Shown here piece after piece: positions 8,566 through 55,206 of a DNA stretch of 64,000 nucleotides. Origin of the DNA: a virus (taxonomy: Duplodnaviria > Heunggongvirae > Uroviricota > Caudoviricetes); IMG/VR virus record IMGVR_UViG_3300049825_000338, positions 20,600 to 84,599 of that record. The stretch is one strand, 5' to 3'. Made by a program: the position numbers and the translations under genes. A model generated the notes under the pieces. That model saw nothing but the letters and a program-made list of their open reading frames with translations. It made no database searches and was not told where the DNA came from. The stretch's first letter is position 1, and each line of letters opens with the position of its first letter.

Positions 8566-9594
8566 TCAGAACGTGATGTACCGTTTGCGCTTTGGTTGCC
8601 CAAACCCAATCGCAAGAGCACCCAGACCAGCCAGCATTGATCCAATTCCGATCATCAACATCATTGAGCTGCCGTCTGATCCTGTCTTAGGAAGTACTGA
8701 TCCGGAGTGAGGGTTTGGTGTGGGAGCTGTAGGAGGAGGCACACCGACTGTCGACACTGGAGGCAGCCCTACATCAACTGTTGTACTTGGTGCGGTGGCT
8801 ACCGTTGTAGTTGGTGCTGGAGCTGTTGATGTTGGGGCCGGGAGCGTGGTTGACGGGGCTGGTGCGGTTGTCGTGGGGGCAGGTGGCTGCGTTGTTGTCG
8901 GAACAGTCGATGTGGGCGGAGTGTCACAGTTTGTGCGTACAACATAATCCATCTCTTGACCGTAGTACATCACGGTGACGGTGTGATCCCCGGAGTTACG
9001 TTCGAAAGTAAAGACTCGCGTCTCGGTGGTGTTGGCAAGAACAACGATGGTGTCATACGTGCTGTCCTTACCATCAATCTCGATCATGAACACGGCGGCT
9101 TCGCCATTTTTTCCATGAGGCACTTCTAGAACGTTTGTAAGCTTTACTACGGCCTTACCGCAAGAAACTTCAACAGAATAGTTGGGATTAGCTGGAACCA
9201 GACTGTCGTCAATTGTTGTAGTTGACTCGTAGTCGTCGTCGTCATCATCAACCGTGGTGTCGGTGCCGTCGTCAGTTGACGGAGGAGTTGACTCGTGACC
9301 GTCGTCGTTACCGTCTGGACTTGTGGTTTCTGACTCTTCATCATCGTTCTCGTCGTTCGATGTTGACGGATAGGTCGGAGGAATGCTGACCGTTACAGGC
9401 GGATAGGTGGCCTCGTCGTCATCGTTCTTGCAGTTATCTTCACCATCGTTCTTGCTAGCGTAGAGACTTTCGCACTTGTCTGACGACTTCGGTGATTCGT
9501 CATTGCCTCTAAAGTTAGCAACCATGGATGACCCGAAGGACAGGGCTGTTGTAGCGACTACTGAGCTAATTACACGTTTGATCATGATGACCAC
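8566..9594 (-). CDS. LPXTG cell-wall-anchored surface protein (sortase substrate)
   Basis: N-terminal signal peptide, acidic D/E-rich region, Thr/Pro-rich region, C-terminal LPKTG followed by a hydrophobic segment and KRKR tail. Confidence 0.7.
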   Translation of the reverse strand: MVIMIKRVISSVVATTALSFGSSMVANFRGNDESPKSSDKCESLYASKNDGEDNCKNDDDEATYPPVTVSIPPTYPSTSNDENDDEESETTSPDGNDDGHESTPPSTDDGTDTTVDDDDDDYESTTTIDDSLVPANPNYSVEVSCGKAVVKLTNVLEVPHGKNGEAAVFMIEIDGKDSTYDTIVVLANTTETRVFTFERNSGDHTVTVMYYGQEMDYVVRTNCDTPPTSTVPTTTQPPAPTTTAPAPSTTLPAPTSTAPAPTTTVATAPSTTVDVGLPPVSTVGVPPPTAPTPNPHSGSVLPKTGSDGSSMMLMIGIGSMLAGLGALAIGFGQPKRKRYITF

Positions 9595-9597
9595 TAT

Positions 9598-9625
9598 ACG
9601 CTAGATTCTCGCTGGACGCAAGCAA
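9598..9625 (-). promoter_or_regulatory. putative promoter of LPXTG gene
   Basis: minus: TTGCTT (9620-9625), 16 nt, TAGCGT (9598-9603); AGAAATTGTAAAG element just upstream, as at the 43.1 kb and 43.3 kb promoters. Confidence 0.35.
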
Positions 9626-9643
9626 CTTTACAATTTCTTGCCA

Positions 9644-10906
9644 TCAGGAAGACAACTCCATGTCCGGAACGTCGGCCTCAGCAGCCAGGCCCTCACCCAC
9701 GCGGAACGTCAAACCCTTGTGCTTCAAGGCATAGGTACGACCCTCTGGCGTCTCAACACGGGCAACCACGCCCTCGATAGGATGCGACTCGTCTAGAGGG
9801 TCCGGACCATCAAAATACACCTCAGCAATCTTAACTGTATAATGAGGATCAGCAGCTTCGTGAATGTGCCGAGCAATCTCTCTGACGTGAGGAACGCCGA
9901 GCTGCGCAGCACGATGCTTGACCTGCGGCCATGAAAGCTCTACAGAAACAGGAGCACCGAAAGCGTCTTCGGTTGTCTGTGTGACTCGGTAGATGTACAC
10001 ACCAATCGAGCCATCAATCTGGCCGTACTTGTAGGTAACACCATCGCCCCACTTCTTAAAGTCCTTCGTATCCTTGAAGTTGTGTCGACCCATGATCGGG
10101 CTGTCCTGAGCCGTGTAACCGACAATCTCGTAGTAGACGATCTCGCCCTTGTGAAGCTTGCCATCGAACAACGAAGCTGCTCGCTTGCGGAATGATTCGT
10201 CCAGGTAGTAGCCAGGGCCGTCAAACTGGTCAAGCACCGTATTACGCGTACCGGTCAAGTACATCCATTCAAACGACTCCGCTGACTTCGTCGGTCGTCG
10301 AAAAAGCTTCTCGATGAGTGTGCGCTTCTCTGTGCTCTCAACCTTGTCGAGCACGTGGCCTGTTCGGCCGCTGGTGCCGTGCATCTTGTGCGTGAAGTAC
10401 ACCATCGAGCCGTCAGGAATCTGATCGAAGTAGTAACCTAGCTGTTCGGTGTCAAAATGCTTCGCAAAGAACGGATTTGACCGTCGAAGCTTGTGATCAT
10501 TCGGACCACCAGCTGCCTTAGTCTTCGGTACATGCTTGAGGCACACTTCGTGACCATTCAATTCCGTGAATATGTCACCGGACTTCAGTGCTGACAGATC
10601 GTAGCCTGTGTAAGCGAGCGATGACAATGGTGCAATGTAGCCGTCAGATGACTCGCCACGAAACTTCTGTGGGCGAACGCGCAACGAGTCGGGGAAGTAC
10701 CCGCCGTCCTTGGACCGTAGCCTGTTCTCGGTTGCATACTCATCGGAGACTGCTAACTCCGAAGAGAAAAAGACGACAAGCTCACCGTCTGTCGTGTCCA
10801 GCCCGACAACAACCTGAAAGCCGCCCACCTGAGCGAGCTTCAGTCGGTCTGCATTTGGGTGCGGACGAATCGACGCCTGTGTAATGAATGCTCCGTGCGT
10901 TGTCAT
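9644..10906 (-). CDS. RNA ligase with N-terminal tRNA-binding (OB-fold) domain
   Basis: HPNADRLKLAQV (tRNA-binding domain signature), KMHGTSGR resembling ligase motif I (KxDG variant); adjacent phosphoesterase genes. Confidence 0.55.
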   Translation of the reverse strand: MTTHGAFITQASIRPHPNADRLKLAQVGGFQVVVGLDTTDGELVVFFSSELAVSDEYATENRLRSKDGGYFPDSLRVRPQKFRGESSDGYIAPLSSLAYTGYDLSALKSGDIFTELNGHEVCLKHVPKTKAAGGPNDHKLRRSNPFFAKHFDTEQLGYYFDQIPDGSMVYFTHKMHGTSGRTGHVLDKVESTEKRTLIEKLFRRPTKSAESFEWMYLTGTRNTVLDQFDGPGYYLDESFRKRAASLFDGKLHKGEIVYYEIVGYTAQDSPIMGRHNFKDTKDFKKWGDGVTYKYGQIDGSIGVYIYRVTQTTEDAFGAPVSVELSWPQVKHRAAQLGVPHVREIARHIHEAADPHYTVKIAEVYFDGPDPLDESHPIEGVVARVETPEGRTYALKHKGLTFRVGEGLAAEADVPDMELSS

Positions 10907-11565
10907 GATGCTCTCTTTCGTGCAATAGAAATTTCTTTGATCAATTCTTGCAAGCTTAACGGCCCTTCGATCCAGCTGTCAACTCCAACGTGAAATGAAT
11001 TCATATCGTCATGGGCGACTTGGCCGTGAGTGTGCCCGTGTACCAAAACGGTTCCGTCTCTGAAGTCCTCGCGCTTTGGGTACCACTTCGCGATGTCGTA
11101 ACCTCGGTCAGCGTCGTCGTGATCTGGAGTGCCAAACCATGGAAAGTGACTGAAAATGGTGCCCTCCAATTCAGGAGCGATAGTGACACCGGCCATAATT
11201 GTAGGGTGGATGGTGAACGTACCTTCGTACAACTCACGAGCACCTTTAGCTCGTTCGGGATTCTTGTGTTGTGCTGCTGGGTGAACGTTGTCGTGGTTGC
11301 CTGGAATCAAGTGCTTGATTCCGTTCAAGTTCTCAGCCATCCATGGAATCGACACAGACCGAGTACCCATAGCGGCATCGCCCACGATCCAGATGTGGTC
11401 GTCCTTACCGACAACTCTATTCCAGGCTGTTTGCAGCACGGCGTTATGTGTCTCGACAGTGCCATCAAACATAGCTCCCTGACGAAATTTCTCAGCCAGA
11501 TTGGTGTGAAAGAAGTGCGTATCACTCCAGAAAAACGTGTTCATAGGGTTACACTCTACCCGCAA
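10903..11565 (-). CDS. calcineurin-like metallophosphoesterase
   Basis: DTHF, GDAAMG, GNHD, GHTHG motifs. Confidence 0.7.
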   Translation of the reverse strand: MRVECNPMNTFFWSDTHFFHTNLAEKFRQGAMFDGTVETHNAVLQTAWNRVVGKDDHIWIVGDAAMGTRSVSIPWMAENLNGIKHLIPGNHDNVHPAAQHKNPERAKGARELYEGTFTIHPTIMAGVTIAPELEGTIFSHFPWFGTPDHDDADRGYDIAKWYPKREDFRDGTVLVHGHTHGQVAHDDMNSFHVGVDSWIEGPLSLQELIKEISIARKRAS

Positions 11566-11577
11566 AACCTAGATATG

Positions 11578-12357
11578 TCAAGTGCTGTACAGAAACTGAT
11601 TCAACGTAACAATCGTGTCGAGAACCGTGTCAAGAACTCTGGCAGAACTGTGAAGCGTAACGCCCTGGCTTGACTCAGCCAAGCCGGTGCAGTGAAAGCC
11701 GTCTACATTGTAATCTTCGTTCATATGCCAGTGACCATGGACAAGTCGTTCAGGTCTGATTTCGTTTAGGCACTGGCGAATGAGGTTCTGCCCTGCCCTG
11801 CTCCCCTTACGGTGCTGCTCGGGGATTCGACTCTGAAAGTCGTCATGACCGTACTTATGAAGTACCAGGCTTACCGGTGCTTCGTGAGTCAGTAGAATGT
11901 GCGCTCGCTTGCCACGAACAAACTCAAGCGAGCTAGGCGAAACAACCTCTTCATCAAAGTAGGAGTGCCCAAGAGAGCGCATGTCACGATCGATGGAATA
12001 GGCACCACCAATGGCGATTATGTCCGTCTCATTCCAGCGCCATGCGCCGTGACGAGGCACAAACTGTGTGCCTTCGACGTCCACAAACGGACCTTCTTCC
12101 AGAAGATAGCCCGAAAGAGACTTCCAATCTTCGTGATTACCCGGCAACCAGAAAAGTGCTACACCGGTTTTGGACTGCTCTTGCCTGGCTACGGAGAGAA
12201 AACGCTGACCAGCTTCGTTACGTGGCCAATATCCGAAATCGCCCATCTGAAAGATGGCATCAATGCCGCTGTCTTGCGCAACCTTGAATGCCGACAGCAG
12301 AGCATAGGTGTCACAGTGAGTGTCACCTAGAAGGAGTACGAAGCGAGGGTCGGTCAT
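11578..12357 (-). CDS. calcineurin-like metallophosphoesterase
   Basis: LLGDTHCD, MGDFGYWP, GNHEDW, LLTHEAP motifs. Confidence 0.7.
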   Translation of the reverse strand: MTDPRFVLLLGDTHCDTYALLSAFKVAQDSGIDAIFQMGDFGYWPRNEAGQRFLSVARQEQSKTGVALFWLPGNHEDWKSLSGYLLEEGPFVDVEGTQFVPRHGAWRWNETDIIAIGGAYSIDRDMRSLGHSYFDEEVVSPSSLEFVRGKRAHILLTHEAPVSLVLHKYGHDDFQSRIPEQHRKGSRAGQNLIRQCLNEIRPERLVHGHWHMNEDYNVDGFHCTGLAESSQGVTLHSSARVLDTVLDTIVTLNQFLYST

Positions 12358-12371
12358 CAGTCTAGTCTACT

Positions 12372-13016
12372 TTAAACGCTTTGGTTTGTCAACTCACTGA
12401 TGCGAACGGATAGTAGCCAGTCGTTAATGGTGCTGTAGTCAGGAAGTTCGTTTAGGCGGGATGCATAACTAGTCACCTGCTCAAAGAGACTCCGAACCGT
12501 CGAGATATCGGCATTGCGACAAAAGTCAATCTGTGCGTCTGTCAGTGCCGGGGTGATTGTTCCCCAGTAAAGAAGTGACTGTAGCTGTAGTGACAGACGA
12601 GCAGCATGGCGCAACAGCTTGGGATCGTCCTTACCGACGCGTGCGTAGCGGATCAGTTGATTGTTGATGTACCCCTTGTATGCTCTCACAGCTTCATTAC
12701 TCAAAAAACAGTGACGAAGCTCAACTAATTCAACTCCGGTCTTTGTCAGCGTCTCGTGAGACGGCAGCCACAGTACTTCATTGACCGTTGGATTACCTTT
12801 CAAAGCTAGAGCGCAAAATCGGCCTAACTCGTGATACGTTGTGTCAAACGGCTCGTGACTTTGAATACTCACGTTCTTGTCATACTCAATACCAAGAACT
12901 TTTCGCGTCGGCGCAAGCTGAACTTCTATATAATCATAATCGGAGTCGGGTGTCTCTAATCCGTAGGCACGTGAACCCACCAAAGCCTTAAGAATCGTGA
13001 TCATGGTGAAGCGCAA
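12372..13016 (-). CDS. nucleotidyltransferase-fold (Pol beta-like) protein
   Basis: LVGSRAYGLETPDSDYDY matches G[SG]x(9-13)DxD NTase motif. Confidence 0.5.
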   Translation of the reverse strand: MRFTMITILKALVGSRAYGLETPDSDYDYIEVQLAPTRKVLGIEYDKNVSIQSHEPFDTTYHELGRFCALALKGNPTVNEVLWLPSHETLTKTGVELVELRHCFLSNEAVRAYKGYINNQLIRYARVGKDDPKLLRHAARLSLQLQSLLYWGTITPALTDAQIDFCRNADISTVRSLFEQVTSYASRLNELPDYSTINDWLLSVRISELTNQSV

Positions 13017-13173
13017 TATACCGTGTCTGTTGCGTCGTTGTCACGCTGATCTACGCAAACGTAGCGACCTAGAAATGTGGCCAGTAGACGTGCAGACAAC
13101 ATAGCGTGCACTTCGATCATAGTCTTTAGTAGCAGGATCGGTCGACGCTTGCCCGTTGTCCACACATCATAAA

Positions 13174-13455
13174 TCACTTTACAAGAACCTTCTGCTTGTA
13201 CGTCTTCAAACCGTAATGCACTTGAAGAGCGTCTTCGACGGTTTCGGCCGTTCCTCGTTCAGAGCACGTAGCCATAATCTGCATCGAGATGTTTGCCGGG
13301 TCAAGACCGCTACCTGTCAACGTGTCCTGACGCTTACCAGCAACGGCAGCGCGATGAGACCAAAGACGCTTTTTCGGATGTTCCGTGACCCCGATGTAGG
13401 CTGGTTGACCGTTAATGATTCCGGAATGTACTGCGTACACATAAAATTGCTTCAC
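13174..13455 (-). CDS. GIY-YIG nuclease domain protein (catalytic domain only)
   Basis: FYVYAV...YIGVTEHPKKRLWSHR. Confidence 0.6.
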   Translation of the reverse strand: MKQFYVYAVHSGIINGQPAYIGVTEHPKKRLWSHRAAVAGKRQDTLTGSGLDPANISMQIMATCSERGTAETVEDALQVHYGLKTYKQKVLVK

Positions 13456-13757
13456 TTGTTTGCCAACTCTCTGATTGAAGGGTTTGCCCCAGATATTCCT
13501 AGGTGCTTATGAACGGCTTTTCTAAGCCTCCTGGTATAAAGTGTATGTCTGTCAAAGGGATGAGGATTATCCAGATAGGTCATGTATCCACAACGAACTT
13601 TTAAGTCACCAAGATCAAATTGCCAGAACCTGTTATCGTTGTCGCCATAAAGTCGTTTAAAGTTTGTTGCGCGACCGGCCTTAACTCCGCTAACTACAAC
13701 GGAATACCACCAAAGTCCTCGTGCTTTCGATTTCTCAATTCGGATACCTTCAGCCAC
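13452..13757 (-). CDS. hypothetical protein (ATGA-coupled to GIY-YIG gene)
   Basis: ORF; start/stop overlap. Confidence 0.4.
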   Translation of the reverse strand: MAEGIRIEKSKARGLWWYSVVVSGVKAGRATNFKRLYGDNDNRFWQFDLGDLKVRCGYMTYLDNPHPFDRHTLYTRRLRKAVHKHLGISGANPSIRELANK

Positions 13758-15213
13758 GGAGACGTTCTCTGATCTTGTCTAGCGTGTTGTCTTCGGCATA
13801 GTCCATCGAAATCAAACTGTCTACGAACGCTGGTCGAAGAAGATCGCGTGTAGACGACTCCTGCTCTTCTGGAGATAGGCCATCATTCAGAACGAGTTTG
13901 CCGTTCTCACGAGTCACCGTCAAGAATCCAGTTGCAGACTTCTTCAGGCCGTCATCAGTCACTGGGTCTTTGGCAAGAAAGTGAATCTTTCCGTTGATCT
14001 CGGCTGCTGTAGCCTTCATGGCCCACCCGAACGTATCGCGAGTTACGTACTGGTATGTGTAGCTGCCAATACCGAGCACAACTTCTGGAGCGTAGCCAGC
14101 GGACTGAAGTCGAGCAAGAATTTCTTGCGCTCGATCAAACGTAATGGCGTCTCCATAAATCACGCCAACCTTAGGATTGAGCACTCTGTAACCTTGAGTG
14201 TTCGTTGTGCTTCCAAATACTTTGTCAAGAAGACGGACAACGCCTTTCGATTCATCAGAATCAGCAGGTGCGTCAGGATCACCGCAAATGATCTTTACCG
14301 GGTCGCCACTGTCAGGACGGATCACGAGCTTGCCGTCACGAGCCTCAATTTCTTCCTTAAGGTCAGGAAGAATGTTGTTGATCACGTTCCACAAGTCCCA
14401 AGTGTCAGAAACAACCGAGACAATCCCAGAAGGGTACAGGTGCAAAAGTCGATTGAATGTCTCTCGCTCGTCCATTTTTGATCCAGCGCACATCACTGAG
14501 TGCTCGGTAGCAGCCACTGAGCCACCGATGAGTCCTTGACCGTCGTAGTAGTGCTCAAGCAGCTTGATTGCTGGGATGGTGTCCGTGCCCGTAAAGCTGA
14601 GAAGGTGGCCAGCGCCTGAGATAGCGGCGCTTTCTGGACTGGACATGCCGCGGAAACTGAAGTCATGACCTTGCCACTGCACGAACTCTGGTGCTACACC
14701 GGTAGCGGCTGCGCTACGGTCAAACAACTTTCGGTATCTGTCCGCAGTCGTAGCTGACGTCGATGGCAGCCACAGGACGCTGGACAGCAGCGTCTCGATA
14801 TAGTTGGTCAGCCAGAAGAACTCTGGGTCAGTATTTTCGACCGTAAGAACGGGAACCCTCATCGGCACTCTCGTGCCCTCGTCCAAAGCCATGATGGCAA
14901 TCGGAAGACGTTGCAACTTATGCAGTGCTTCGATGTGGTCGACGCCGATATTGTTGGGTCCGAGGTAGCTATCCAAGAACTCGCGATACTCCGCAACCGC
15001 TACGTCACAGGGGGTATCGAACCATTCATTGAACTCGTCAACAAGATACTTCTGCATGAAATAGCGAAGACCAAAGAACACAATCTCGTCAACACCCTCA
15101 ATGCGTGATCCTCGCGGCGTCAGGTTAGAGTAGACAAACGTCGTTCCTTCTGGATACTGACGACGGTGGTCTACCTTGTAGCCGTCAGTTAGCAAGATTG
15201 CTGGTGTGTTCAC
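13750..15213 (-). CDS. nadV: nicotinamide phosphoribosyltransferase (NAMPT)
   Basis: LLTDGYKVDH, VENTDPEFFWLTNYIETLL, GHDFSFRG, VVSDTWDLWN match NAMPT family blocks. Confidence 0.85.
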   Translation of the reverse strand: MNTPAILLTDGYKVDHRRQYPEGTTFVYSNLTPRGSRIEGVDEIVFFGLRYFMQKYLVDEFNEWFDTPCDVAVAEYREFLDSYLGPNNIGVDHIEALHKLQRLPIAIMALDEGTRVPMRVPVLTVENTDPEFFWLTNYIETLLSSVLWLPSTSATTADRYRKLFDRSAAATGVAPEFVQWQGHDFSFRGMSSPESAAISGAGHLLSFTGTDTIPAIKLLEHYYDGQGLIGGSVAATEHSVMCAGSKMDERETFNRLLHLYPSGIVSVVSDTWDLWNVINNILPDLKEEIEARDGKLVIRPDSGDPVKIICGDPDAPADSDESKGVVRLLDKVFGSTTNTQGYRVLNPKVGVIYGDAITFDRAQEILARLQSAGYAPEVVLGIGSYTYQYVTRDTFGWAMKATAAEINGKIHFLAKDPVTDDGLKKSATGFLTVTRENGKLVLNDGLSPEEQESSTRDLLRPAFVDSLISMDYAEDNTLDKIRERLRG

Positions 15214-16129
15214 GGTGGAACCTTTCGATTAGATTAGCAATTGAATACGTGCGAGTTACGTTCACGTTTGGATGAGCATACGAGTCTGTCGTAAGAATAT
15301 GTGTGTACCGTTTCAGTAGTTCTGATGTGCCTTTCGAAAAGATACCATGAGATACCCACAGCGACAATGGCACTCTACCGCCAACTATGTCAGCAAGACC
15401 ATGAAATGTTGCACCACCATCACAGATATCGTCAACAACAAGCCCGTTAGTGACGCCTTCCGGAATAGCGAGAGACTCGTACCCAGTGATACTGCCGGTG
15501 TCGAAGTTTCGTTTCTTTATTCCGTAGCTCACTTTCTTAATCCCTAGGAATTCTGCAAACGCTTCGGCGCGACCTACTGCCCCATGATCTGGAGTAATGA
15601 CCCAATCAAACTTTGGCATCCATACTTCAGCCTTTGCCAGAACTTCGTGAGCGCTGTAGACAACAACGTTTTTGTTCCAGTTATGAAGCCAATTCAGTGA
15701 ATGAGGATCAAACACGCCGACATAATCGCAAGCGTCCATGAAGTAATCCATGATGATGGAAGCCGTATCGGGCGTTCCATTTTGTTGACGATCCTGACGT
15801 CCTCCGTAGATATACGGAATGAATGCAGAGACGTAGGCACCAGCACCAACCAAAGCATCTACCAGCAGCATCGACCGAAACATACATGATGTCGAACTAT
15901 GGTCAACAACCAACGTCATTTCAAGTCCAGCAAACTTCGGTGGATCAGTCAACTGCACCTGCTGTGCTCCATCAGGAAAAACAAACTCGGCGTACCACGA
16001 CTGATCTGTCTGATACAGGATCATAGCACTGAACGATTTAGGTAAAGTAGACCAGCGCACAGCAACACTCCAAGGATCAGCACTACCGCTCCCATGGCCA
16101 ACGCCCGCTGCTAGCGAGTCCGACAACAC
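15185..16129 (-). CDS. prs: ribose-phosphate pyrophosphokinase (PRPP synthetase); likely start at MILYQT (~16024)
   Basis: IPYIYGGRQDRQ (Prs hallmark) and VVDDICDGGATF PRPP-binding loop. Confidence 0.8.
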   Translation of the reverse strand: MLSDSLAAGVGHGSGSADPWSVAVRWSTLPKSFSAMILYQTDQSWYAEFVFPDGAQQVQLTDPPKFAGLEMTLVVDHSSTSCMFRSMLLVDALVGAGAYVSAFIPYIYGGRQDRQQNGTPDTASIIMDYFMDACDYVGVFDPHSLNWLHNWNKNVVVYSAHEVLAKAEVWMPKFDWVITPDHGAVGRAEAFAEFLGIKKVSYGIKKRNFDTGSITGYESLAIPEGVTNGLVVDDICDGGATFHGLADIVGGRVPLSLWVSHGIFSKGTSELLKRYTHILTTDSYAHPNVNVTRTYSIANLIERFHREHTSNLAN

Positions 16130-17612
16130 TAGGAATCAGATCAAGAATCTGATCCGAAAATCCGCCGACAACAAAGCGGTTATGTGAGCCATGCTGGGCA
16201 TGGGCAACTGCGTATCCGGCGACATTCCATGTGACTACAGGAACGTTAACGATGCTGGTATCTCTAACCGACGTCTGCTCATCTGTCAAGATGATAACCA
16301 GATCGTACCTGCCTCGTCGGAATGCTTCTGACGTGCAGTGCCACGTGTCAGTGCCGCCGTTAGGACGGAACCATCCAGAATTCACGACACCTAGAACAGA
16401 CTGTGTGTCGAGATGAGCGTTCTTCTGTTCACGAAGAAGGCGAGTATCGTAGCTCACGATATCGGCTGACTTAGCTCGTCTAGCAAGTGTAACTGCAAAT
16501 AGTCCTGCAACCTGCGATCTCGTAGGAGACGTTCCCCGGCTGTCGTTTCCGACGCGTGTGCCCATAGAGCCAGAGCAGTCAACCATAATAAGAACGTTCT
16601 TGTTGATTAACGGAAGGTTCTTCACCGACTCTTCTAACGCATCGTTCAACGGCTGCTTGAAGCGATCGCTCTTTGTGTTCATGTACGCAGACAAGAAGCG
16701 ATACGGAAGCTGCTTGGACTTAGCTACTTCTTCAGCGTTTGCGATTCGGGCTGCCGCCTTAGCAAGTTCTTTAACGGGAACGTGAGCGTCTTCTAGGTTG
16801 CGCAGGTTGCGCAGAAGCGCCATGTAGCCTAGCTCTGGAACTAGTGCAGACCATGCAGACGCATCCAGGCCTCCAGGCAGCCATGAACCAAGACGTTCCC
16901 ATGAGAAGCCAGCCGACACGGCCTCGTCTAGCCGTGCACGTCGCTCAGCTGCTGGAATGCTCTGAAGATTCAGAACTTGAGAAATTCGTCCTAGCTCTTC
17001 GGGAGTACTTACGGCATTACGTCGTCGATCAAGCGCAAACTTGAACAGCGCAGACTGCTTCTCTGTTGACGGTATAGGGTGCACAATCTCGATGACGTCA
17101 CCGAACCGCCAGCCCTTATTAGAGCCGTCGTAGCGAAGCAACGCGTTCTCTGTGTACAGGCGTTTCACAGCATCACCAATGCCGCGCTTTAGCGCCATTG
17201 GCATCTGGCGACCGTACTGGCTGAACCAGTAACCGAGCATTTCTCCCGGCTCGTCAGCGCGCTGAAGAACGGAGTTAACAACCGAACGAGCGTTCGGTCC
17301 CTTCATCCGAGCGTACTCTGCTGCAATGACAAGCGAGGCCGAACGAATGTTTGCCTCATTGCGGAGCCACTTCACGAACGGAGCAATCCATGACGGATCA
17401 CACCTACTCACCAATGTCGCAAGACGATCAAGCTGGTCAGCGCCGCTTTCGTAGAACTGATCCTTGAGGAGTCCGGATACGGCCGTCAGAAACAACTCTG
17501 TTTGAGCAGTGTTCTCGAATCCTAGTCCGCCTTCAAACGTCTGTACTCGGTTGGTTGTTGATGCCAGTAGTGCTGGCCGCGCCTTGGCTGGTGTGTTACT
17601 GAATCGTGCCAT
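16083..17612 (-). CDS. rsr: Ro60-like TROVE domain protein with C-terminal vWA domain
   Basis: alpha-helical TROVE-like N-terminal ~340 aa (QFYESG...IAAEYARM), then vWA MIDAS motif VLIMVDCSGSMG and downstream T/D motifs. Confidence 0.6.
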   Translation of the reverse strand: MARFSNTPAKARPALLASTTNRVQTFEGGLGFENTAQTELFLTAVSGLLKDQFYESGADQLDRLATLVSRCDPSWIAPFVKWLRNEANIRSASLVIAAEYARMKGPNARSVVNSVLQRADEPGEMLGYWFSQYGRQMPMALKRGIGDAVKRLYTENALLRYDGSNKGWRFGDVIEIVHPIPSTEKQSALFKFALDRRRNAVSTPEELGRISQVLNLQSIPAAERRARLDEAVSAGFSWERLGSWLPGGLDASAWSALVPELGYMALLRNLRNLEDAHVPVKELAKAAARIANAEEVAKSKQLPYRFLSAYMNTKSDRFKQPLNDALEESVKNLPLINKNVLIMVDCSGSMGTRVGNDSRGTSPTRSQVAGLFAVTLARRAKSADIVSYDTRLLREQKNAHLDTQSVLGVVNSGWFRPNGGTDTWHCTSEAFRRGRYDLVIILTDEQTSVRDTSIVNVPVVTWNVAGYAVAHAQHGSHNRFVVGGFSDQILDLIPSVVGLASSGRWPWER

Positions 17613-18457
17613 TAGTAATCGTCGTCCTCATCTTCCCGATCTTCGTACTCGCTGTCATCGTAACCCCAACCGTCATCGTCGTCTTCTTCAGACCACACAG
17701 CTGGCCAGATGTAGACCTCTGCGACTTCTTGCTTGATCTCACCTACAACCTCGTAGCGCCACGTGCGGCCCTTGCTGTAGTTGTAATCGTCCGGAATGGA
17801 TACGACATCGGCGGGATTGATCTTCACAACCATCACGCGTGCCCCGCCAAAGCTCTTCAGGTAGTTCTTAGAGCAGAAGTGCAGACCAGTTGAGCAGTGG
17901 TTGCGTCGATTGTCATCCACCTCTCCCCGATTCATCTGAACCGTCTGGCCGATGCTGTTGTCGATCGTTCCGGTGTAGCAGTCGGTGTAGTCATCATGGA
18001 CCTTCTTGAAGGCCAAGAAGTGCCCGTCAGGAGTGATCGGAAGACCAGCAACCTCCAGGAAGTCGTACAACTCGTCACGAGCCGCTACGAACGGGTTGCG
18101 GTACAGATTGGTTATGAACTTGACCCACGCCGCAACGTCCAGACCTTCGTTGATGATTTGGAGTACTCGGTCGGTGAGCGTTGTGTGGACTGGCTCGCCG
18201 TCGTAGTAAACACCGCTGGTGGTTACCGTCAGTTCACCCTCAGGCAAGAGGATCATCGTGTCAGGCAGGCTGCTAAAGGCATCAGCGATGCTCTTGGCTG
18301 GACTGGCCAGCCCGACTAGGTATTCGATGTCCGGGTTCGGGTTACGCAGCGCTTCTAGAGCGTTCTCGAACGCCATCGTACCGGTTTCGATCGAGTGGCT
18401 GTTAAAGTCGTTGTCAAAGAACGTGAGAGTGTTCGATGTGAGGAGATAGTTGATCAT
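17612..18457 (-). CDS. hypothetical protein with poly-acidic C-terminal tail
   Basis: ORF; TAATG stop/start overlap with rsr-like gene; tail EEDDDDGWGYDDSEYEDREDEDDDY. Confidence 0.5.
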   Translation of the reverse strand: MINYLLTSNTLTFFDNDFNSHSIETGTMAFENALEALRNPNPDIEYLVGLASPAKSIADAFSSLPDTMILLPEGELTVTTSGVYYDGEPVHTTLTDRVLQIINEGLDVAAWVKFITNLYRNPFVAARDELYDFLEVAGLPITPDGHFLAFKKVHDDYTDCYTGTIDNSIGQTVQMNRGEVDDNRRNHCSTGLHFCSKNYLKSFGGARVMVVKINPADVVSIPDDYNYSKGRTWRYEVVGEIKQEVAEVYIWPAVWSEEDDDDGWGYDDSEYEDREDEDDDY

Positions 18458-18489: not shown

Positions 18490-20472
18490 TTACTGGCTGA
18501 CTTGGTTTGTGACAACTTGATTGAGAGAATTTTTCCAGGCGATGTACGCAGCCACCTCGTCATCGTGACCGTTGCTGAACAGAAGCGGATAAGTGTTATG
18601 GATGGTGGACAGTACTTCCTTGGACATCGTGTCCACGTCCCAGTAATTCACCATAAATCCTGCGAATCGGTCATCATCTTCACCAAGATCGCTGAAGATT
18701 GGGTGATCCATCACTGTTTCCAGTAGCGCCGGATACCGGTCAAGCTGTGCAACAACCTGCGACCTTGCCCTATGACGAAGAACCACGTCCTTGTATTTCT
18801 CTGACGTAGCGCTGAGCGCCTCACTCCAGTGACGACTTTCTGGTAGACCCAGCTTCCTCACCTCGGCTGGTGTGTAGTGCTTGACCTCTAGAGTTGGGTG
18901 GTCGATACTAAGAACGTTCCACTCCGAACCTGACGGGCTGTCCTGGTGACGTTTGCTGCGACTCTGGTTGGCCCAAAAAAGGTCAGGGTTACTCAAATCA
19001 AACGTCGGTTTAGGACGCTTAGGTGTCGTGGATGCCTGACGAACCTCCTTTGGCTTCTTGGGTAGGTCGTCAAAGTTGATGATATTCTCATCCGGAATAC
19101 GCGCCTCGGTCTTAATCTTGTCCATATCACTATGCGAGCCAACCAGCAAAAAATCATCTCTATGGCGAGAAGATGGATAGTTGAACGTGAGAGTGGTGCG
19201 TACTCCCTTACTTCCTGTTGGAATGACAATGAACTTGTGCCGCAGACGTCGTTCGATATAGACTCTGTGATCACAAGGTACGGAGTAGGTCGGGAACACC
19301 GGACCCTTGGTAAATCGACTAGCGTAGGTAGGATCATGGTCAAGCGCCACATCAATACTATCGATCAAAGGGGCACCACGGTAATTGAACGTGTTACGGG
19401 CCAGACCAAAGTTCTGTACTGTGTCGTACCAGTAGAACGATGCGTCTACGACTGAGCTACAGGCGTCCAATTTGTCTTGAATGTGGCTGATCACCGAAGC
19501 ACGAGCGTCAGTGATGGCATCCCGAACCGCTACGATGCTCTGCTCATCGTATGAGAAGTCTTCACGAGAGGCCGTCACGTCGATCGACCCAATCGGAACA
19601 TCAATGACCACAGCAATTCTGTGCACTCGCAAAGAGTTTTGAAGAACCGAACTCTTTGAAATTGGGTAGATCACGCAACCTTGACGAATGTACGTGCCCT
19701 CATCCAACTCAGACGTTGCCAGCAATATCCGAACGTTGTCGACGTGCAGAATCTCTTCCGGCTCTGCAAAGTTCATGCCTTCGACAGCTGGCACAGGAAA
19801 GAACCCGTTAAGAAAGCGTCGTGCTGCTCGTGCAAACTCGTGATAGTCGCCGTGCTTGATTGAAAGCTTCACCTCGACACCTTGTGGCTCCGAGCAGTCC
19901 TCTTCACCCGCAAGCGTCAGCGCCGGAACGCCGCTGTTTTCGATGAACGCCAAGTAACTGCGTACTCGCGTTCCGTCGTAGCAACGAATCGCAAACTGAT
20001 CGGTGTAGGAGAAAGGCGACTTAGAGCCGAGACCGAGCATACCTACCTGGTCGTTGGTGCTTTCCTTTGACGAGCCAAACAACGTTGTGTACAGCGTGGT
20101 CACGGTCTCGTGATCCATGCCGGTGCCGAAGTCGCGAACACCGAACACAGGATTTAGTGCTGTAGGAACTGTAACCTCGAACGGCACGTCAGCCTTGCCT
20201 GCGGCTACGTGCGAGTCGAATGCGTTAGAGCACAATTCTCGCACGATTGCGCCAGGCTTGTCAGAGTAAAGCTTGTCCACGAGTGTGCGGAAGGCCTTAC
20301 CGTTCGCTTCAATCGTGAATGACTTCACGGTTCCGGTCATGTTCGACTCAAGAACGGTGGTGTCTGCGTTGCGGGGGATCATGATGTGACCTCTTCTGTC
20401 AGGTTGAACTGAGCGTAGTAGGGTGATGTGTCGTGAACTTTTCCTTCGGGACCGAAGACGCCATAGCACCAT
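18490..20472 (-). CDS. GHKL-family ATPase (HSP90/MORC-like); probable start at 20382 (ATGA overlap with upstream gene)
   Basis: N-box RELCSNAFDS, G1 box VRDFGTGM, G2 box GMLGLGSKS. Confidence 0.6.
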   Translation of the reverse strand: MVLWRLRSRRKSSRHITLLRSVQPDRRGHIMIPRNADTTVLESNMTGTVKSFTIEANGKAFRTLVDKLYSDKPGAIVRELCSNAFDSHVAAGKADVPFEVTVPTALNPVFGVRDFGTGMDHETVTTLYTTLFGSSKESTNDQVGMLGLGSKSPFSYTDQFAIRCYDGTRVRSYLAFIENSGVPALTLAGEEDCSEPQGVEVKLSIKHGDYHEFARAARRFLNGFFPVPAVEGMNFAEPEEILHVDNVRILLATSELDEGTYIRQGCVIYPISKSSVLQNSLRVHRIAVVIDVPIGSIDVTASREDFSYDEQSIVAVRDAITDARASVISHIQDKLDACSSVVDASFYWYDTVQNFGLARNTFNYRGAPLIDSIDVALDHDPTYASRFTKGPVFPTYSVPCDHRVYIERRLRHKFIVIPTGSKGVRTTLTFNYPSSRHRDDFLLVGSHSDMDKIKTEARIPDENIINFDDLPKKPKEVRQASTTPKRPKPTFDLSNPDLFWANQSRSKRHQDSPSGSEWNVLSIDHPTLEVKHYTPAEVRKLGLPESRHWSEALSATSEKYKDVVLRHRARSQVVAQLDRYPALLETVMDHPIFSDLGEDDDRFAGFMVNYWDVDTMSKEVLSTIHNTYPLLFSNGHDDEVAAYIAWKNSLNQVVTNQVSQ

Positions 20473-21295: not shown

Positions 21296-21730
21296 TCAGT
21301 CATGAAAAATCGCTCCCGTTGTCCGAGACAGGTAATCACCCGTCAAAACAAACTTCTCGTACATATCCATGATTGCCCGCTCCGGGACAACTCGCTCACG
21401 TGCGGTGTTGCGAGCCAGGCACAGAGCAAGGGGCGTATCGAAGACGTGATAGGACACTCTTGCTTCCCGTGCAAGCGCCAAGTTACGCAGGTCGGAGCGA
21501 ACCTTAGGTGACAGGTTCGTGTCCGCACTGACGACCGTAGACCCGTTAGAGATGGCGTCGGCAATTCGTTGGTTACGAATCGCAACAACCTTTTTCTCAT
21601 CACGAGGCCAAACGGCGTCAATCTCTTCGCGTATATCGTCCCGTGTGACGGTCAAATATCCAGTCGTCTCCGCCCACGTTGACTTGCCGCTCGCTGGCAG
21701 TCCGATCGTAATTATCAGATGTCCCGGCAT
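21296..21730 (-). CDS. polynucleotide 5'-kinase (T4 Pnk kinase-domain-like)
   Basis: IITIGLPASGKSTW P-loop, RDD, VVSADTNLSP, HVFDTP, blockwise like T4 PNK N-terminal kinase domain. Confidence 0.7.
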   Translation of the reverse strand: MPGHLIITIGLPASGKSTWAETTGYLTVTRDDIREEIDAVWPRDEKKVVAIRNQRIADAISNGSTVVSADTNLSPKVRSDLRNLALAREARVSYHVFDTPLALCLARNTARERVVPERAIMDMYEKFVLTGDYLSRTTGAIFHD

Positions 21731-22140: not shown

Positions 22141-22623
22141 TCATGGCTTGCCTTTCTTTGGTCTACCAAGGTGAATACCTTTGGCTTTTGCTGCGGCCAT
22201 ACCGGCCTTCGTGCGTTCTACGATGATCTCTCGCTCAAACTCTGCAACAGCCGAGAGAATTCCCGCTACTAGCTTACCGACCGGTGTGCCCAAATCAACC
22301 TGAAGATCAAGAACGCTGAGAGACCAGCCGTTGCCCTGGAACTCTTCCAGAAGAGTGGCAAAGTCCTTGACTGAGCGCGACAACCGATCAAGCTTGGCAA
22401 CCACAACCCCGTCTGCCTCTCCACGGCGAAGCATAGACAGCGCCCTCTGTAGCTCAGGGCGAGCCTCAGCACTTTTGCCCGAGGCGGCTTCGGTAATGTG
22501 ACCAACGATGTCGTGCTCATTCAACTGACTCCAGAGTCCAATCTTATGCCACTGTGCGTCGAGACCGTGGCCATCCTCGGCTTGGTCGAACGTTGAGACT
22601 CGCGTGTAAGCAATATAGCGCAC
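22141..22623 (-). CDS. serine recombinase (resolvase/invertase) catalytic domain, lacks HTH domain
   Basis: YIAYTRVSTFDQ with catalytic Ser, ends at GRPKKGKP where HTH normally begins. Confidence 0.6.
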   Translation of the reverse strand: MRYIAYTRVSTFDQAEDGHGLDAQWHKIGLWSQLNEHDIVGHITEAASGKSAEARPELQRALSMLRRGEADGVVVAKLDRLSRSVKDFATLLEEFQGNGWSLSVLDLQVDLGTPVGKLVAGILSAVAEFEREIIVERTKAGMAAAKAKGIHLGRPKKGKP

Positions 22624-24562: not shown

Positions 24563-24898
24563 TCATAAGACAAGATTTCCGGTTTCTGTAAGTTCGTAGG
24601 TGCCTGGTAGTGTTCCCCAGTAGTCAAAGTCATCAGATAGACGTTTCGTCCACGCTTTGGTGTACTCACATCGAAGCAAAGCGTCAGGGCCAGCAAGGCG
24701 TTCGCAAATCGGGTGTTGAATGACCCACCCGTCTCTGTCGATATCAATCATATGATGCCTGTCACGAAGTACGACTAATAAGTGGTCTGCGTCGGTAATT
24801 ACGTCTTCCTGGTCGTGTCCTGTTGCAATGAGAATCTGCTGAAGACGGCTAAAAGCGTCAACAAGATAACTAAACGACTGTGGCTCCGGACTCGTCAT
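24563..24898 (-). CDS. hypothetical protein
   Basis: ORF, start overlaps the phosphatase stop. Confidence 0.4.
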   Translation of the reverse strand: MTSPEPQSFSYLVDAFSRLQQILIATGHDQEDVITDADHLLVVLRDRHHMIDIDRDGWVIQHPICERLAGPDALLRCEYTKAWTKRLSDDFDYWGTLPGTYELTETGNLVL

Positions 24899-25572
24899 TA
24901 GACCATCACCGTTGTGAACGTGTAATTATCCGGTGCGCCCTTGCTCTCACAAAGATCAGCTAACCGAGCGTTGACGGCTTGCGGAGTGCGTTCGCTGTCA
25001 CGAATAACCTCCTCAATCTCCGTGTCGGTTGAATAGTTGAAGAGACCGTCAGTCGCCAAGATAAGCAATTCGCCGTCATGAAGTTCTAGGCCTCCATGAT
25101 GACCTACCTCCATAAGATAGCCGAGGCATGACGTCAAAATGCCGTTATGATCTTCGTGATCCTGTGTCAGCCGCATCAGAACATCATGATCGGTGTAGAT
25201 ATAGATGCGCGAGTCTCCCGCCCACGCAACGTCAAGAACATTAGTCTCGCTGAGACGAGCAATGACCATAGTCGTGCCAGGAAACCCAGTCAGGCGTCCG
25301 TGAGGGTTCAGCTTCTCAACCTCTGCATTCGCCTGCTGCACAACAAACTCCAAATCAGCTTGGGCGTCATTCGTCATTATCATCCACGTAGATGCTGCTG
25401 CATCTTGGCTGGCGACGTCCCCCTGCGGGTGACCGCCTAGACCATCAAACACCGCCCACCAGCGAGCACCGCTACAGTGTGAATCCTCTTGCGCCTGACG
25501 TCGTTGGCCAATGGCGGTTGTTGTGTGGTAAATCACAACATGAAGTCTACGACGGACGACCGATTCCGACAA
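24898..25572 (-). CDS. PP2C-family Ser/Thr protein phosphatase
   Basis: WAVFDGLGGH, DGLFN, C-terminal DN motif typical of PPM/SpoIIE phosphatases. Confidence 0.7.
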   Translation of the reverse strand: MSESVVRRRLHVVIYHTTTAIGQRRQAQEDSHCSGARWWAVFDGLGGHPQGDVASQDAAASTWMIMTNDAQADLEFVVQQANAEVEKLNPHGRLTGFPGTTMVIARLSETNVLDVAWAGDSRIYIYTDHDVLMRLTQDHEDHNGILTSCLGYLMEVGHHGGLELHDGELLILATDGLFNYSTDTEIEEVIRDSERTPQAVNARLADLCESKGAPDNYTFTTVMV

Positions 25573-26600: not shown

Positions 26601-27107
26601 CTAGATGGAACAGATCATCAACTGTGGCCCGCCAAGAATCGAATCTTCGGCAAGCTGAAGCGTCTGAATAACCTCACTCCATTCCAGGCCACCAATCCCT
26701 GCGCCAATGCGTGGGATGTAGAGGAAGTCGATGCCGAACCCAAACCGCTTGTTGATCGAGTCTAGGCTGGACAAGGCGTTGATCGTTGCATCTCTAATCG
26801 CCTGCTGCTCTGCAAAGGGACCAGGCTCCACCTGAGTGATCATATTGAACACCAACGGAGACTCTGGAGTAACGCCTGCCGGATTGCCGTCATGCCATTG
26901 CACAACTTGACCGAGATTGACGGCTCCATTGCGGCACTGGTCGGCGTAGTATTCGTAGCATGTCGGGTATAGCTGACGAACCTGGCGAGCAAACCCCGCC
27001 CCCATCATTCCGCGAGCGTTGCAGCCATGCGCAAACGCACGCGGCCTGAAGTCAAACAAATTCCCAAATACCTCAATCAAGAGGATTCTCCGTTCCCATG
27101 TAGTCAA
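26601..27107 (-). CDS. macro domain (ADP-ribose binding/processing) protein
   Basis: HGCNARGMMGAGFARQV resembles the macro-domain N..GGGV loop. Confidence 0.6.
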   Translation of the reverse strand: MTTWERRILLIEVFGNLFDFRPRAFAHGCNARGMMGAGFARQVRQLYPTCYEYYADQCRNGAVNLGQVVQWHDGNPAGVTPESPLVFNMITQVEPGPFAEQQAIRDATINALSSLDSINKRFGFGIDFLYIPRIGAGIGGLEWSEVIQTLQLAEDSILGGPQLMICSI

Positions 27108-41930: not shown

Positions 41931-42422
41931 TCAGAGTACGGGTTGAACAGACTCCAGAAAACCGACGTAAACGATCGATCGGCCACGAGTCCACGAGCAC
42001 TGCAACACGATGCGCCGAGCCGCTGGATCAAGGCCATAGATAAGTTCAGCGGGCGGGTCTTGAGACGTCACGGTTCTGGTGGCAATACGATACGTGAACA
42101 CCTGGTCATAGGAATTGATGTTCACCGTTTGCCCAGCACGGAGACGTGGGAGCTTACGGAACGGAGCACCGTGACTCGAACGATGACCGGCCAGCCAGAC
42201 AGTACCGACCTCGCCAGGAGCCACAGCCGGTGACCAGCCGTCAAACAAGGTGACGCTACCAGCATCAATTGATTCCTGGTCACCTACGTAGATGTCAGCG
42301 CCGAATCGAAGCGACGGAATCTCCAAGTACCAGTCGGTGGTATTTGAAGAAGCGGAAGCCGGAATGCTTGTAGCTATCGGTAACAGGATTACAGCCAGAA
42401 AGACACACAAAGCTTTCATCAC
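41931..42422 (-). CDS. sortase-family transpeptidase
   Basis: signal peptide; VWLAGHRSS (His), RIVLQCSW (Cys), TRGRSIVYVG (Arg) in SrtA-like order. Confidence 0.6.
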   Translation of the reverse strand: MMKALCVFLAVILLPIATSIPASASSNTTDWYLEIPSLRFGADIYVGDQESIDAGSVTLFDGWSPAVAPGEVGTVWLAGHRSSHGAPFRKLPRLRAGQTVNINSYDQVFTYRIATRTVTSQDPPAELIYGLDPAARRIVLQCSWTRGRSIVYVGFLESVQPVL

Positions 42423-46620: not shown

Positions 46621-46802
46621 TGATAAATGCCCTTAGCAGCAAACTCGTCAAGACGTCGGTCTACCGCAAAGTCTCCGAGAATCAGACGTGCGTCCTCAAG
46701 CGAGGCAACAGTTATCGACTCGCCACTAGTCCACAAACGACGCGCTTCCTCTGCCGATAGCGCTGAGGATTCGTCAATCGTCATTGTAGGTAGTAAGTTC
46801 AC
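46617..46802 (-). CDS. hypothetical small protein
   Basis: ATGA-coupled ORF. Confidence 0.35.
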   Translation of the reverse strand: MNLLPTMTIDESSALSAEEARRLWTSGESITVASLEDARLILGDFAVDRRLDEFAAKGIYQ

Positions 46803-50610: not shown

Positions 50611-50889
50611 TGACTCGCAGCTTTCGCTTCGTCTGACGCCTCAACGTCGGCCCAAAGAGCAATGTCGGCAAACACCTGTTCCCAGTCTACGAGATCGGCG
50701 TCAAAGTCGCCAAAGTCCTGGTCATCCTCATCGGCAGCACCCATAAGGTCTGCCAGCACCTGGTCGTCAGAAATGTTCGTCATGACTCAAGTCTACCTTG
50801 CCGAGCGTGGATTCTGCACCACCGACCCGAATCGGGTCCAAAATCTCCGGCATACACCTCGGTACAGGCTGGGCACGTCGTTGTCTCGG

Positions 50890-54966: not shown

Positions 54967-55206
54967 ATGTTCACATTCGCCATACAATCAGTTAGTGGCC
55001 ACATTTCTTACTTTGACTCATCTCGGGTAGTTTCTTTTGTAGAAATAAAGGACGAACCCGACAAGGTGATAGTAGTTATGGATAACGGAACATCGGAACC
55101 GGTGTTTGTGGGCATTGAAGCTTCTCCAGCAGTCTTTTACAGAACTCTTCAAATGAGGTCTAGATTTCTCAACGATGTGCCTATTCTCAAGGAAGTGACA
55201 CTATGA
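54967..55206 (+). CDS. hypothetical protein
   Basis: ORF only. Confidence 0.4.
   Translation: MFTFAIQSVSGHISYFDSSRVVSFVEIKDEPDKVIVVMDNGTSEPVFVGIEASPAVFYRTLQMRSRFLNDVPILKEVTL

Follow-up and report, generated by a model that had tools for sequence, protein, structure and literature searches.

RNA-cleaving toxins (anticodon nucleases, MazF-type toxins and colicin-like ribotoxins) form a major branch of antiviral defense, and RNA repair by phages is the counter-move. Phage T4 combines the polynucleotide kinase-phosphatase Pnkp with the RNA ligase Rnl1 for repair of the anticodon loop of transfer RNA (tRNA), as a counter to PrrC. Precedents for a metallophosphoesterase (MPE) as a healer of RNA 2',3' ends are the Clostridium thermocellum enzyme CthPnkp and lambda phosphatase, binuclear MPEs with 2',3'-cyclic phosphodiesterase and phosphomonoesterase activities for RNA 3' healing (PMC2190708, PMC3675462). 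More broadly, the combination of a ligase, a polynucleotide kinase (Pnk), a phosphoesterase, the nucleotidyltransferase RlaP and a TROVE protein is an established, predicted scheme of RNA repair in phages (PMC7824862). Here, we describe a related locus in a tailed phage represented by IMG/VR record IMGVR_UViG_3300049825_000338, of which a stretch of 64,000 nt was analyzed (positions 20,600 to 84,599; hereafter the window, within which all positions are counted). Adjoining genes for an RNA ligase, two MPEs (MPE1 and MPE2) and RlaP lie at 9644-13016, and a standalone polynucleotide 5'-kinase is encoded elsewhere in the window.

The locus shares the heal-and-seal logic of T4 Pnkp and Rnl1 and its kinase is a clear homolog of that of T4 (expectation value, E, 3e-11), but it lacks the DxDxT/HAD phosphatase, its ligase is Rnl5-like, and it has RlaP and two MPEs in addition. 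The original prediction of a T4 Pnkp/Rnl-like healing and sealing set thus holds as a functional analogy, backed by motifs and gene-neighborhood statistics; it does not hold as homology, given a ligase of the Rnl5-like, nick-sealing class and not of the Rnl1 anticodon-loop type. As in CthPnkp, an MPE is combined with a 5'-kinase of the P-loop type and with an ATP-dependent ligase (PMC2190708, PMC3675462). CthPnkp, however, has its three domains on one polypeptide and is paired with the methyltransferase Hen1, whereas the window encodes separate proteins with MPEs of other subfamilies; the Pnkp-Hen1 family TIGR04075 scored 21 bits against a cut-off of 750, and no Hen1-like match was found among the open reading frames (ORFs) scanned. 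The phage and bacterial RNA-repair systems of Burroughs and Aravind (2016), as later papers summarize them, have the same families and logic, in which the 3' end is healed, the 5' end phosphorylated, lost nucleotides restored by RlaP and the break ligated, and are likewise associated with TROVE/Ro proteins, 2H proteins, NAD salvage and RF-type rescue factors (PMC7824862, PMC6514570, PMC12776372). Compared with these systems, healing in the window is distributed over three small proteins (one with the kinase only, an MPE of the aq_1665 type and a Dbr1-like MPE) and not carried by a kinase-HAD or kinase-HD fusion.

Among cultured phages, Streptomyces phage GiJojo, Mycobacterium cluster E phages (DirkDirk) and Bacillus phage vB_BcoS-136 encode a ligase of the same family (29-39% identity) as well as a polynucleotide kinase. 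Genes for a Ro-like protein, an RNA ligase, RlaP, Pnk and PnuC are all present in GiJojo, the PnuC transporter gene adjoining the kinase, and a NAMPT-type gene is found in the ligase region of vB_BcoS-136 and DirkDirk. These phages use a long Pnk and often have large tRNA arrays; the window, in contrast, has a kinase-only protein and two MPEs, packs RlaP, MPE2, MPE1 and ligase into one operon, and has no tRNA genes in the ~72 kb examined. The claim that this breadth of repair functions is unusual for one phage was not borne out: each component is routinely annotated in cultured actinophages, and the full scheme has been described for jumbo phages (PMC7824862). The components and the overall scheme are thus already described (PMC7824862, PMC6514570, PMC12776372). 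What is modestly new is the three-protein healing module, its complementarity with kinase-HD fusions and a functional prediction for aq_1665-family proteins.

The four genes that the original prediction had named, for the ligase, two phosphoesterases and a nucleotidyltransferase, are indeed adjacent, all on the minus strand and each with family matches (Table 1). Gaps of 14 nt (RlaP-MPE2) and 12 nt (MPE2-MPE1) separate the first three, and the MPE1 stop codon overlaps the ligase start by 4 nt (ATGA), an arrangement that points to co-translation of the four genes. A putative sigma-70-like site (13044-13015) lies just 5' of RlaP, such matches not being evidence of function. Catalytic motifs are intact in all five enzymes (ligase, RlaP, MPE1, MPE2 and kinase). 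We consider it probable that the operon and the kinase constitute a phage system for repairing RNA breaks by end healing and sealing. In the proposed pathway, MPE2, which is phosphodiesterase-like, would open a 2',3'-cyclic phosphate or trim the 3' end, and MPE1 would then remove the leftover 2'- or 3'-phosphate to leave a 3'-OH, replacing the phosphatase domain of bifunctional Pnkp. The standalone kinase would phosphorylate the 5'-OH, and RlaP would add one or two nucleotides to the 3'-OH if the nuclease (a "smart" ribotoxin of the RloC type) had removed one. The ligase, adenylylated on K174, would finally join the 3'-OH and 5'-PO4 ends, probably where base pairing gives the break the form of a nick. 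We infer the division of labor between MPE2 and MPE1, the RNA substrate and the counter-defense purpose, as well as tRNA as the target and the involvement of a host toxin. The counter-defense and translation-related genes around the operon (rIIA/rIIB, Ro60/TROVE and a Prs-NAMPT pair) count in favor of RNA repair, as does the recurrence of the gene association, beyond chance, around 85 ligase homologs in 40 lineages.

The ligase matches PHROG 968 "RNA ligase" (E 2.6e-52) and, both just under the gathering score, the Pfam families PF21189 (PHA02142 OB, residues 12-94) and PF09414 (RNA_ligase, residues 169-388). Homologs occur in 375 phage records, and 2,502 proteins were found in a large protein database. 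Across an alignment of 41 sequences (homologs 40-63% identical), the residues of motif I (K174-x-H176-G177), motif III (E255), motif IV (E378-G379) and motif V (K395-x-K397) are invariant. Searches of the PDB with single sequences of the ligase, MPE1, MPE2 and RlaP gave noise or marginal matches, and family profiles were used instead. The ligase family profile finds NgrRnl of Naegleria gruberi and aligns K174 with its known nucleophile, K170; the nucleotidyltransferase lysine is thus present. An AlphaFold (AF2) model of the ligase (predicted local distance difference test, pLDDT, 88.6; predicted template modeling score, pTM, 0.84) has NgrRnl for all of its top 13 Foldseek matches in the PDB (E 2e-16 to 4e-14, full length, target-normalized TM-score 0.63-0.73), with REL1 and T4 Rnl2 next at ~1e-4. 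The N-terminal OB domain precedes the adenylyltransferase domain, an order shared with the Rnl5 enzymes DraRnl and NgrRnl; the lysine of motif I is conserved as well, and so are motifs III, IV and V. The window ligase nevertheless is ~16-18% identical to these two enzymes, is ~80 aa longer, falls below the TIGR02306 cut-off, and has KxHG in motif I, as in T4 Rnl2, where DraRnl and NgrRnl have KxDG. The "tRNA-binding domain" formerly assigned to the ligase turns out to be the signature N-terminal OB domain of the Rnl5 class; it weakly resembles the PheRS-B2, MetRS-C and Arc1p-C folds (Foldseek), and this resemblance to tRNA_bind/EMAP folds is structural only. Judged by alignment and predicted fold, the ligase is a Rnl5-like enzyme of a separate, phage-rich clade (PHA02142/phrog_968).

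No Pfam family matches MPE1, which belongs to phrog_547 "phosphoesterase" (E 3.6e-38). A profile of 18 MPE1 sequences matches the Aquifex protein aq_1665 (1xm7) over its full length (E 6e-28; positions 2-180 against residues 3-193), a structure deposited by structural genomics as "hypothetical protein aq_1665". The MPE1 metal ligands D15, H17, D63, N90, H91, H140, H178 and H180 are invariant. The standalone kinase was correctly identified as T4-Pnk-like in the original prediction: it matches the kinase domain of T4 Pnk (1ly1, E 3.3e-11), and its P-loop GxxxxGKS (K16, S17) and R-D31-D-x-R34 motif align with K15, S16, D35 and R38 of T4. The 144-aa protein ends with the kinase domain and has no C-terminal DxDxT (HAD) 3'-phosphatase domain.

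To place these genes in context, we assembled 80 viral loci with ligase homologs, two metagenomic contigs and three phage records, 85 in all, and scanned every ORF within 10 kb of the ligase with iterated profiles; dereplication at 80% ligase identity left 40 lineages. Pnk-type kinases are encoded in 46 of the 85 loci and MPE1 homologs in 42; by lineage, 18 of 40 have MPE1 and up to 27 have a kinase (17 short, 10 long). Kinases near ligases fall into two size classes, short proteins of 134-199 aa that comprise the kinase only and long ones of 299-346 aa. All three long kinases tested (L009, L010 and L072) have a C-terminal HD phosphohydrolase domain, not HAD as in T4. MPE1 immediately adjoins the kinase in 24 of 29 loci with a short kinase and in 0 of 20 with a long one (Fisher p 2e-9), and the pattern holds for the dereplicated lineages (14/17 against 0/10; p 3e-5). 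Thus, MPE1 adjoins short kinases and never kinase-HD proteins, as expected if it stands in for the phosphatase domain. Of the evidence that MPE1 provides the 3'-phosphatase carried in cis by kinase-HD and kinase-HAD fusions, this complementarity is the strongest, and we propose that MPE1 is a healing enzyme that removes 3'- or 2'-phosphates as the partner of the kinase. In 13 listed loci (not dereplicated), MPE1 is directly upstream of the ligase, as in the window.

The same survey bears on whether these are loose accessory genes without a joint pathway, brought together by mosaic shuffling in the early/accessory region of large actinophage genomes. Just upstream of RlaP is a gene resembling GIY-YIG homing endonucleases, and the clusters of relatives are interrupted by HNH genes; the kinase varies widely among phages in its order and distance, and eight of the 40 ligase lineages have no partner gene within 10 kb. 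We nevertheless regard this explanation as very unlikely, in view of the start/stop overlap and short gaps within the operon, the recurrence of the partner families at two unrelated ligase families (below) and the kinase/MPE1 complementarity, which survives dereplication.

The nucleotidyltransferase matches the RlaP family PF10127 well above its cut-off (E 1.4e-21; 77.8 bits against 23), and the Pol-beta signature G14-S15 ... S25-D26-Y-D28 can be read from its sequence. RlaP stands for RNA ligase-associated Pol-beta, a name that derives from linkage to RNA ligases. RlaP-like genes are present in 45 of the 85 ligase loci and 23 of the 40 lineages, and 44 of the 45 matches have the GS...[ST]DxD signature. 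In Pseudomonas, RlaP adds one or two nucleoside monophosphates to an RNA 3'-OH and is required for tRNA that has lost nucleotides to recover aminoacylation; the authors of that study proposed that it counteracts "smart" ribotoxins, RloC among them (PMC12776372). By analogy, we propose that the RlaP of the window may add one or two nucleotides to resected RNA 3'-OH ends.

MPE2 matches the Metallophos family PF00149 (E 1e-10). With a profile of 28 sequences, the best match is the RNA lariat debranching enzyme Dbr1 (4peh, E 2.7e-5, nearly full length); its nearest relatives include Dbr1, aq_1956 and Lmo2642, and the structural neighbors of its model (pLDDT 92.1) include the cyclic-nucleotide phosphodiesterases Lmo2642 and Rv0805. 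The nearest solved relatives of MPE2 are thus phosphodiesterases acting on RNA or cyclic nucleotides. Neither phosphoesterase is an ordinary DNA nuclease of the Mre11/SbcD type: the MPE2 profile matches that family at E 0.06-0.09 only, other families are nearer to both MPEs, an MPE core with the capping domain of Mre11/SbcD takes >330 aa where the MPEs have 220 and 259, and no Rad50/SbcC partner adjoins them. We propose that MPE2 may be a 2',3'-cyclic phosphodiesterase or a 3'-end trimming enzyme.

In ~29 of the 85 loci, MPE2-like genes (~250-280 aa) are located 0.5-3.5 kb upstream of the ligase, and in 11 loci they follow RlaP within ~0-620 nt, upstream of Rnl5-like ligases. Closer homologs (36-40% identity) were found in two phage contigs with an Rnl1-type ligase (PF09511). 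One (L091) has the order MPE1, HNH, MPE2, short kinase, ligase, with MPE1 and kinase 36% and 39% identical to those of the window; in the other (L092), MPE2 and a short kinase are separated from the ligase by one unassigned ORF. The finding of the healing trio with two ligase families argues for a shared role in RNA-end healing and not for chance adjacency. In a more far-reaching version, which we regard as somewhat unlikely, the kinase, MPE1 and the Dbr1-like MPE2 would form a distinct, uncharacterized three-protein end-healing module that replaces bifunctional Pnkp in many phages, is interchangeable between Rnl5-like and Rnl1-like ligases, and contributes through MPE2 an activity absent from the Pnkp of T4 and Clostridium. 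That activity could be a dedicated phosphodiesterase of the 2',3'-cyclic or 2'-5' kind, a 2'-phosphatase, or the trimming of ends ahead of RlaP. If true, the novel MPE2 activity would let a phage mend breaks made by "repair-defying" nucleases.

Several observations weigh against a dedicated RNA-repair system. A distance of 8.3 kb separates the kinase gene from the operon. Similarity to MPE2 is only remote for the MPE2-like genes found close to Rnl5-like ligases (E 7e-6 to 1e-2, small database), and closer homologs of MPE2 also occur without a nearby ligase, for example in phages Optimus and Gilson. We found no functional study of an aq_1665-type MPE or of MPE2 relatives, and the phage clade PHA02142/phrog_968 has no assayed member as far as the literature showed. 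Neither tRNA nor Y RNA was detected in the 64-kb window. The match to TIGR02306, the DraRnl/DRB0094 family, covers residues 10-186 only and reaches 59.7 bits against a cut-off of 151 (E 2e-16). Finally, the Rnl5 enzymes characterized so far seal duplex nicks in an Mn2+-dependent manner, their physiology being uncharted, and loss of DraRnl impairs recovery from DNA damage, with no known RNA pathway (PMC5397189).

The last of these points raises the alternative that the cassette acts at DNA. The ligase would then seal nicks with ribonucleotide 3'-OH ends in RNA-primed or ribonucleotide-patched phage DNA, and the kinase and MPEs would clean DNA or RNA ends during replication or after restriction damage. 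For DraRnl and NgrRnl it is indeed enough that the 3'-OH strand at a duplex nick is RNA, and without DraRnl the reassembly of the genome after irradiation is delayed (PMC5397189). Genes for a Prim-Pol, helicases and a DNA polymerase are present in the window, and a recognizable DNA ligase was absent from the ORFs scanned. Kinases of the T4 Pnk type act on DNA 5'-OH ends as well, which also speaks for an action at DNA. However, among the macromolecules tested, RlaP acted on RNA only (PMC12776372), the trio of MPE1, MPE2 and kinase also pairs with Rnl1-type ligases, the classic tRNA-repair family, and the neighbors of the operon are Ro60, NARP1-like and rII genes and not replication genes. We thus consider a role at DNA unlikely and retain repair of RNA breaks as the preferred reading.

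Table 1. Positions, strands and principal matches of the genes discussed (window coordinates).
Feature	Position	Strand	Length, order and matches
RlaP nucleotidyltransferase	12372-13016	-	214 aa; first in transcription order
MPE2 metallophosphoesterase	11578-12357	-	259 aa; second
MPE1 metallophosphoesterase	10903-11565	-	220 aa; third
ATP-dependent RNA ligase, Rnl5-like	9644-10906	-	420 aa; fourth
Standalone polynucleotide 5'-kinase	21296-21730	-	144 aa; AAA_33 E 1.2e-21; phrog_505 "polynucleotide kinase" E 3.8e-25
2H phosphoesterase, LigT/ThpR-like	50080-50610	-	PF13563 E 3.6e-5, score 24.3 against cut-off 27
Acidic ORF	50607-50783	-	58 aa
Standalone RF-1 (GGQ) domain protein	50890-51246	-	PF00472 E 5e-17; phrog_3122 E 1.1e-25; G25-G26-Q27
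rIIA	18490-20472	-	phrog_612 E 3e-106
rIIB	17612-18457	-	phrog_609 E 8e-62
Ro60/TROVE + vWA RNA-binding protein	16083-17612	-	PF05731 E 8.4e-13; vWA_Ro60 E 2e-4; phrog_850 E 1.9e-45
Prs-like gene	15185-16060	-	overlaps NAMPT-like gene by 29 nt
NAMPT-like gene	13750-15213	-	downstream of Prs-like gene; ends ~0.7 kb upstream of operon
ORF	13452-13757	-	101 aa; missed by database gene caller
GIY-YIG protein	13174-13455	-	93 aa
Macro-domain protein	26601-27107	-	PF01661 E 3.5e-6
Serine recombinase	22141-22623	-	160 aa; resolvase domain only
Thr/Pro/Asp-rich protein	8566-9594	-	342 aa
Sortase-domain protein	41931-42422	-	PF04203 E 3.5e-12
PemK/MazF-like domain protein	46799-48658	-	619 aa; PF02452 E 1.7e-6 and phrog_1936 (N-terminal domain); phrog_3170 (central domain)
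PP2C-type protein phosphatase	24898-25572	-	
ClpP protease, then vWA protein	55203-56545	+	

Two further genes of the window had been linked to the repair functions, for a 2H phosphoesterase and a GGQ protein. They lie ~37 kb from the operon and we found no link to it beyond the shared genome, which also counts against including them in the repair system. The 2H protein is a near-orphan, a word-indexed search of 5.8 billion proteins returning only itself. An exhaustive search yielded six distant relatives, all of which match PF13563, and the 2H motifs H15-M-T17 and H94-L-S96 are invariant among them. Its profile matches LigT-type structures (1vdx, E 1e-5; 1iuh, 5.5e-5; 2fyh within the range E 1e-5 to 5.5e-5) better than Acb1 (E 1e-3 to 5e-3, C-terminal motif only), and the window protein itself has no match to the Acb1 family PF23474 at E<=0.01, whereas two of the six relatives have weak Acb1 Pfam matches. 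The 2H motifs thus bear out the proposed phosphoesterase, and its assignment to a subfamily leans toward the LigT rather than the Acb1 type; a function as a cyclic-phosphate hydrolase is possible. The GTG start of the 2H gene overlaps (GTGA) the TGA stop codon of the very acidic 58-aa ORF between the GGQ and 2H genes, for which no family match was found; this overlap supports the long 2H reading frame over the shorter gene call in the database.

The GGQ protein is a standalone RF-1 domain, and its description as ArfB-like did not hold up: the match to NF006718 reaches 36 bits against a cut-off of 100 and covers residues 7-41 only, and the last 30 residues are net negative, whereas the tail with which ArfB probes the empty mRNA channel is basic. 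Homologs are found in 228 phage records, mostly of mycobacteriophages, in which GGQ genes can adjoin tRNA arrays and a transfer-messenger RNA (tmRNA) gene. A codon-independent peptidyl-tRNA hydrolase acting on stalled ribosomes is a possible function, to judge from its domain content.

Upstream of the operon lies a co-directional block comprising rIIA, rIIB, Ro60/TROVE-vWA, Prs-like and NAMPT-like genes; neither these nor the Macro-domain gene figured in the original prediction. The Ro60 protein shares 33-40% identity with the "Ro-like RNA binding protein" annotated in Arthrobacter, Streptomyces and Gordonia phages. Ro-like annotations appear in 94 phage records, among them those of actinophages that encode RlaP, a ligase and Pnk as well. 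For a Y RNA or YrlA partner of Ro60, no Rfam match was obtained in the 64-kb window at the gathering threshold or at E<=5, and in folding, the gaps without called genes at 13017-13173 and 13456-13749 did not outperform shuffled sequences (z -0.6 and +1.1). A third gap, 15214-16082, was considered as a noncoding Y RNA site and is occupied by the Prs-like gene instead. The rIIA-rIIB pair is also found near the ligase in a relative (L006), which shares with the window the order kinase, small ORF, serine recombinase; the recombinase adjoining the window kinase consists of the resolvase domain only. The GIY-YIG gene and the 101-aa ORF lie between the NAMPT-like gene and RlaP. In two relatives (L005 and L091), the corresponding clusters are broken up by HNH genes, which suggests traffic of homing endonucleases in these regions.

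A Prs gene followed by a NAMPT gene is the layout of NARP1, a phage NAD+ reconstitution pathway (Adps and Namat) that counters NAD-depleting defenses (10.1101/2024.02.11.579819). The pair in the window appears NARP1-like by layout, substrate specificity not being readable from sequence, and NAMPT genes occur near RNA ligase homologs of Bacillus and Mycobacterium phages too. The Macro-domain protein could process ADP-ribose (ADPR) derivatives, either ADPR-1''P, as NARP1-AP does, or by-products of 2'-phosphate removal. We also considered the MPEs as the phage phosphatase that extends NARP1 and rejected them; that enzyme is a Macro-domain protein and not an MPE (10.64898/2026.01.28.702374).

These genes bring in another explanation, in which one or both MPEs, with the distant 2H and Macro proteins, destroy immune signals or their by-products (cyclic oligonucleotides of CBASS, type III CRISPR and Pycsar, signals of the cyclic ADPR type in Thoeris, and ADPR-phosphates), and the ligase is adjacent as part of a shared counter-defense island. 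The cyclic-nucleotide phosphodiesterases among the structural neighbors of MPE2 are in line with such a role, as are the proximity of the Prs-NAMPT pair, the presence of a Macro gene, the weak Acb1 matches of two 2H relatives, the 2H profile match to Acb1 at E 1e-3, and the phages whose MPE2 homologs occur without ligases. It accounts poorly for MPE1, which adjoins the kinase in a pattern complementary to the kinase-HD fusions, and for MPE2, which adjoins the kinase near Rnl1-type ligases in independent lineages; the identity of the phosphatase that extends NARP1 and the ~100-fold better 2H profile match to LigT-type structures than to Acb1 also speak against it. We judge signal degradation to be quite unlikely, and healing of RNA ends remains our preferred function for the two MPEs. 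The complementarity of kinase-HD proteins with kinase plus MPE1 translates into a testable functional prediction for the aq_1665 family; otherwise the locus mostly confirms predictions of comparative genomics. It is compact and well preserved, and offers clean proteins for three uncharacterized pieces, the PHA02142/Rnl5-like clade, the aq_1665-type MPE and the Dbr1-like MPE.

The source is a large, uncultured phage, probably of an actinobacterial host. Its DNA polymerase and many other proteins of the window are nearest to proteins of actinobacterial phages (~30-40% identity), and the window also encodes lysin-like, sigma-factor and DNA-replication genes besides rIIA/rIIB. Megablast of positions 9000-16000 against the INPHARED phage collection returned no nucleotide match, and the phage is represented in metagenomes only, with identical proteins encoded on a metagenomic contig of ~106 kb. 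Neither the 64-kb window nor the adjoining 10 kb on its right yielded a tRNA or tmRNA gene. Large tRNA arrays surround the Ro-like, RF-1 or RNA ligase genes of actinophages GiJojo, EniyanLRS and Gilson.

Elsewhere in the window, a 619-aa protein has an N-terminal PemK/MazF-like endoribonuclease domain, and a phage-borne RNase of a type that leaves 2',3'-cyclic-phosphate as well as 5'-OH termini is notable beside an RNA repair kit. The Thr/Pro/Asp-rich protein encoded directly downstream of the ligase carries a sortase-anchoring signal at its end (LPKTG, then a hydrophobic stretch and a KRKR tail), and the same phage encodes a sortase-domain protein. Other genes include those for a PP2C-type protein phosphatase and for a ClpP protease followed by a vWA protein.

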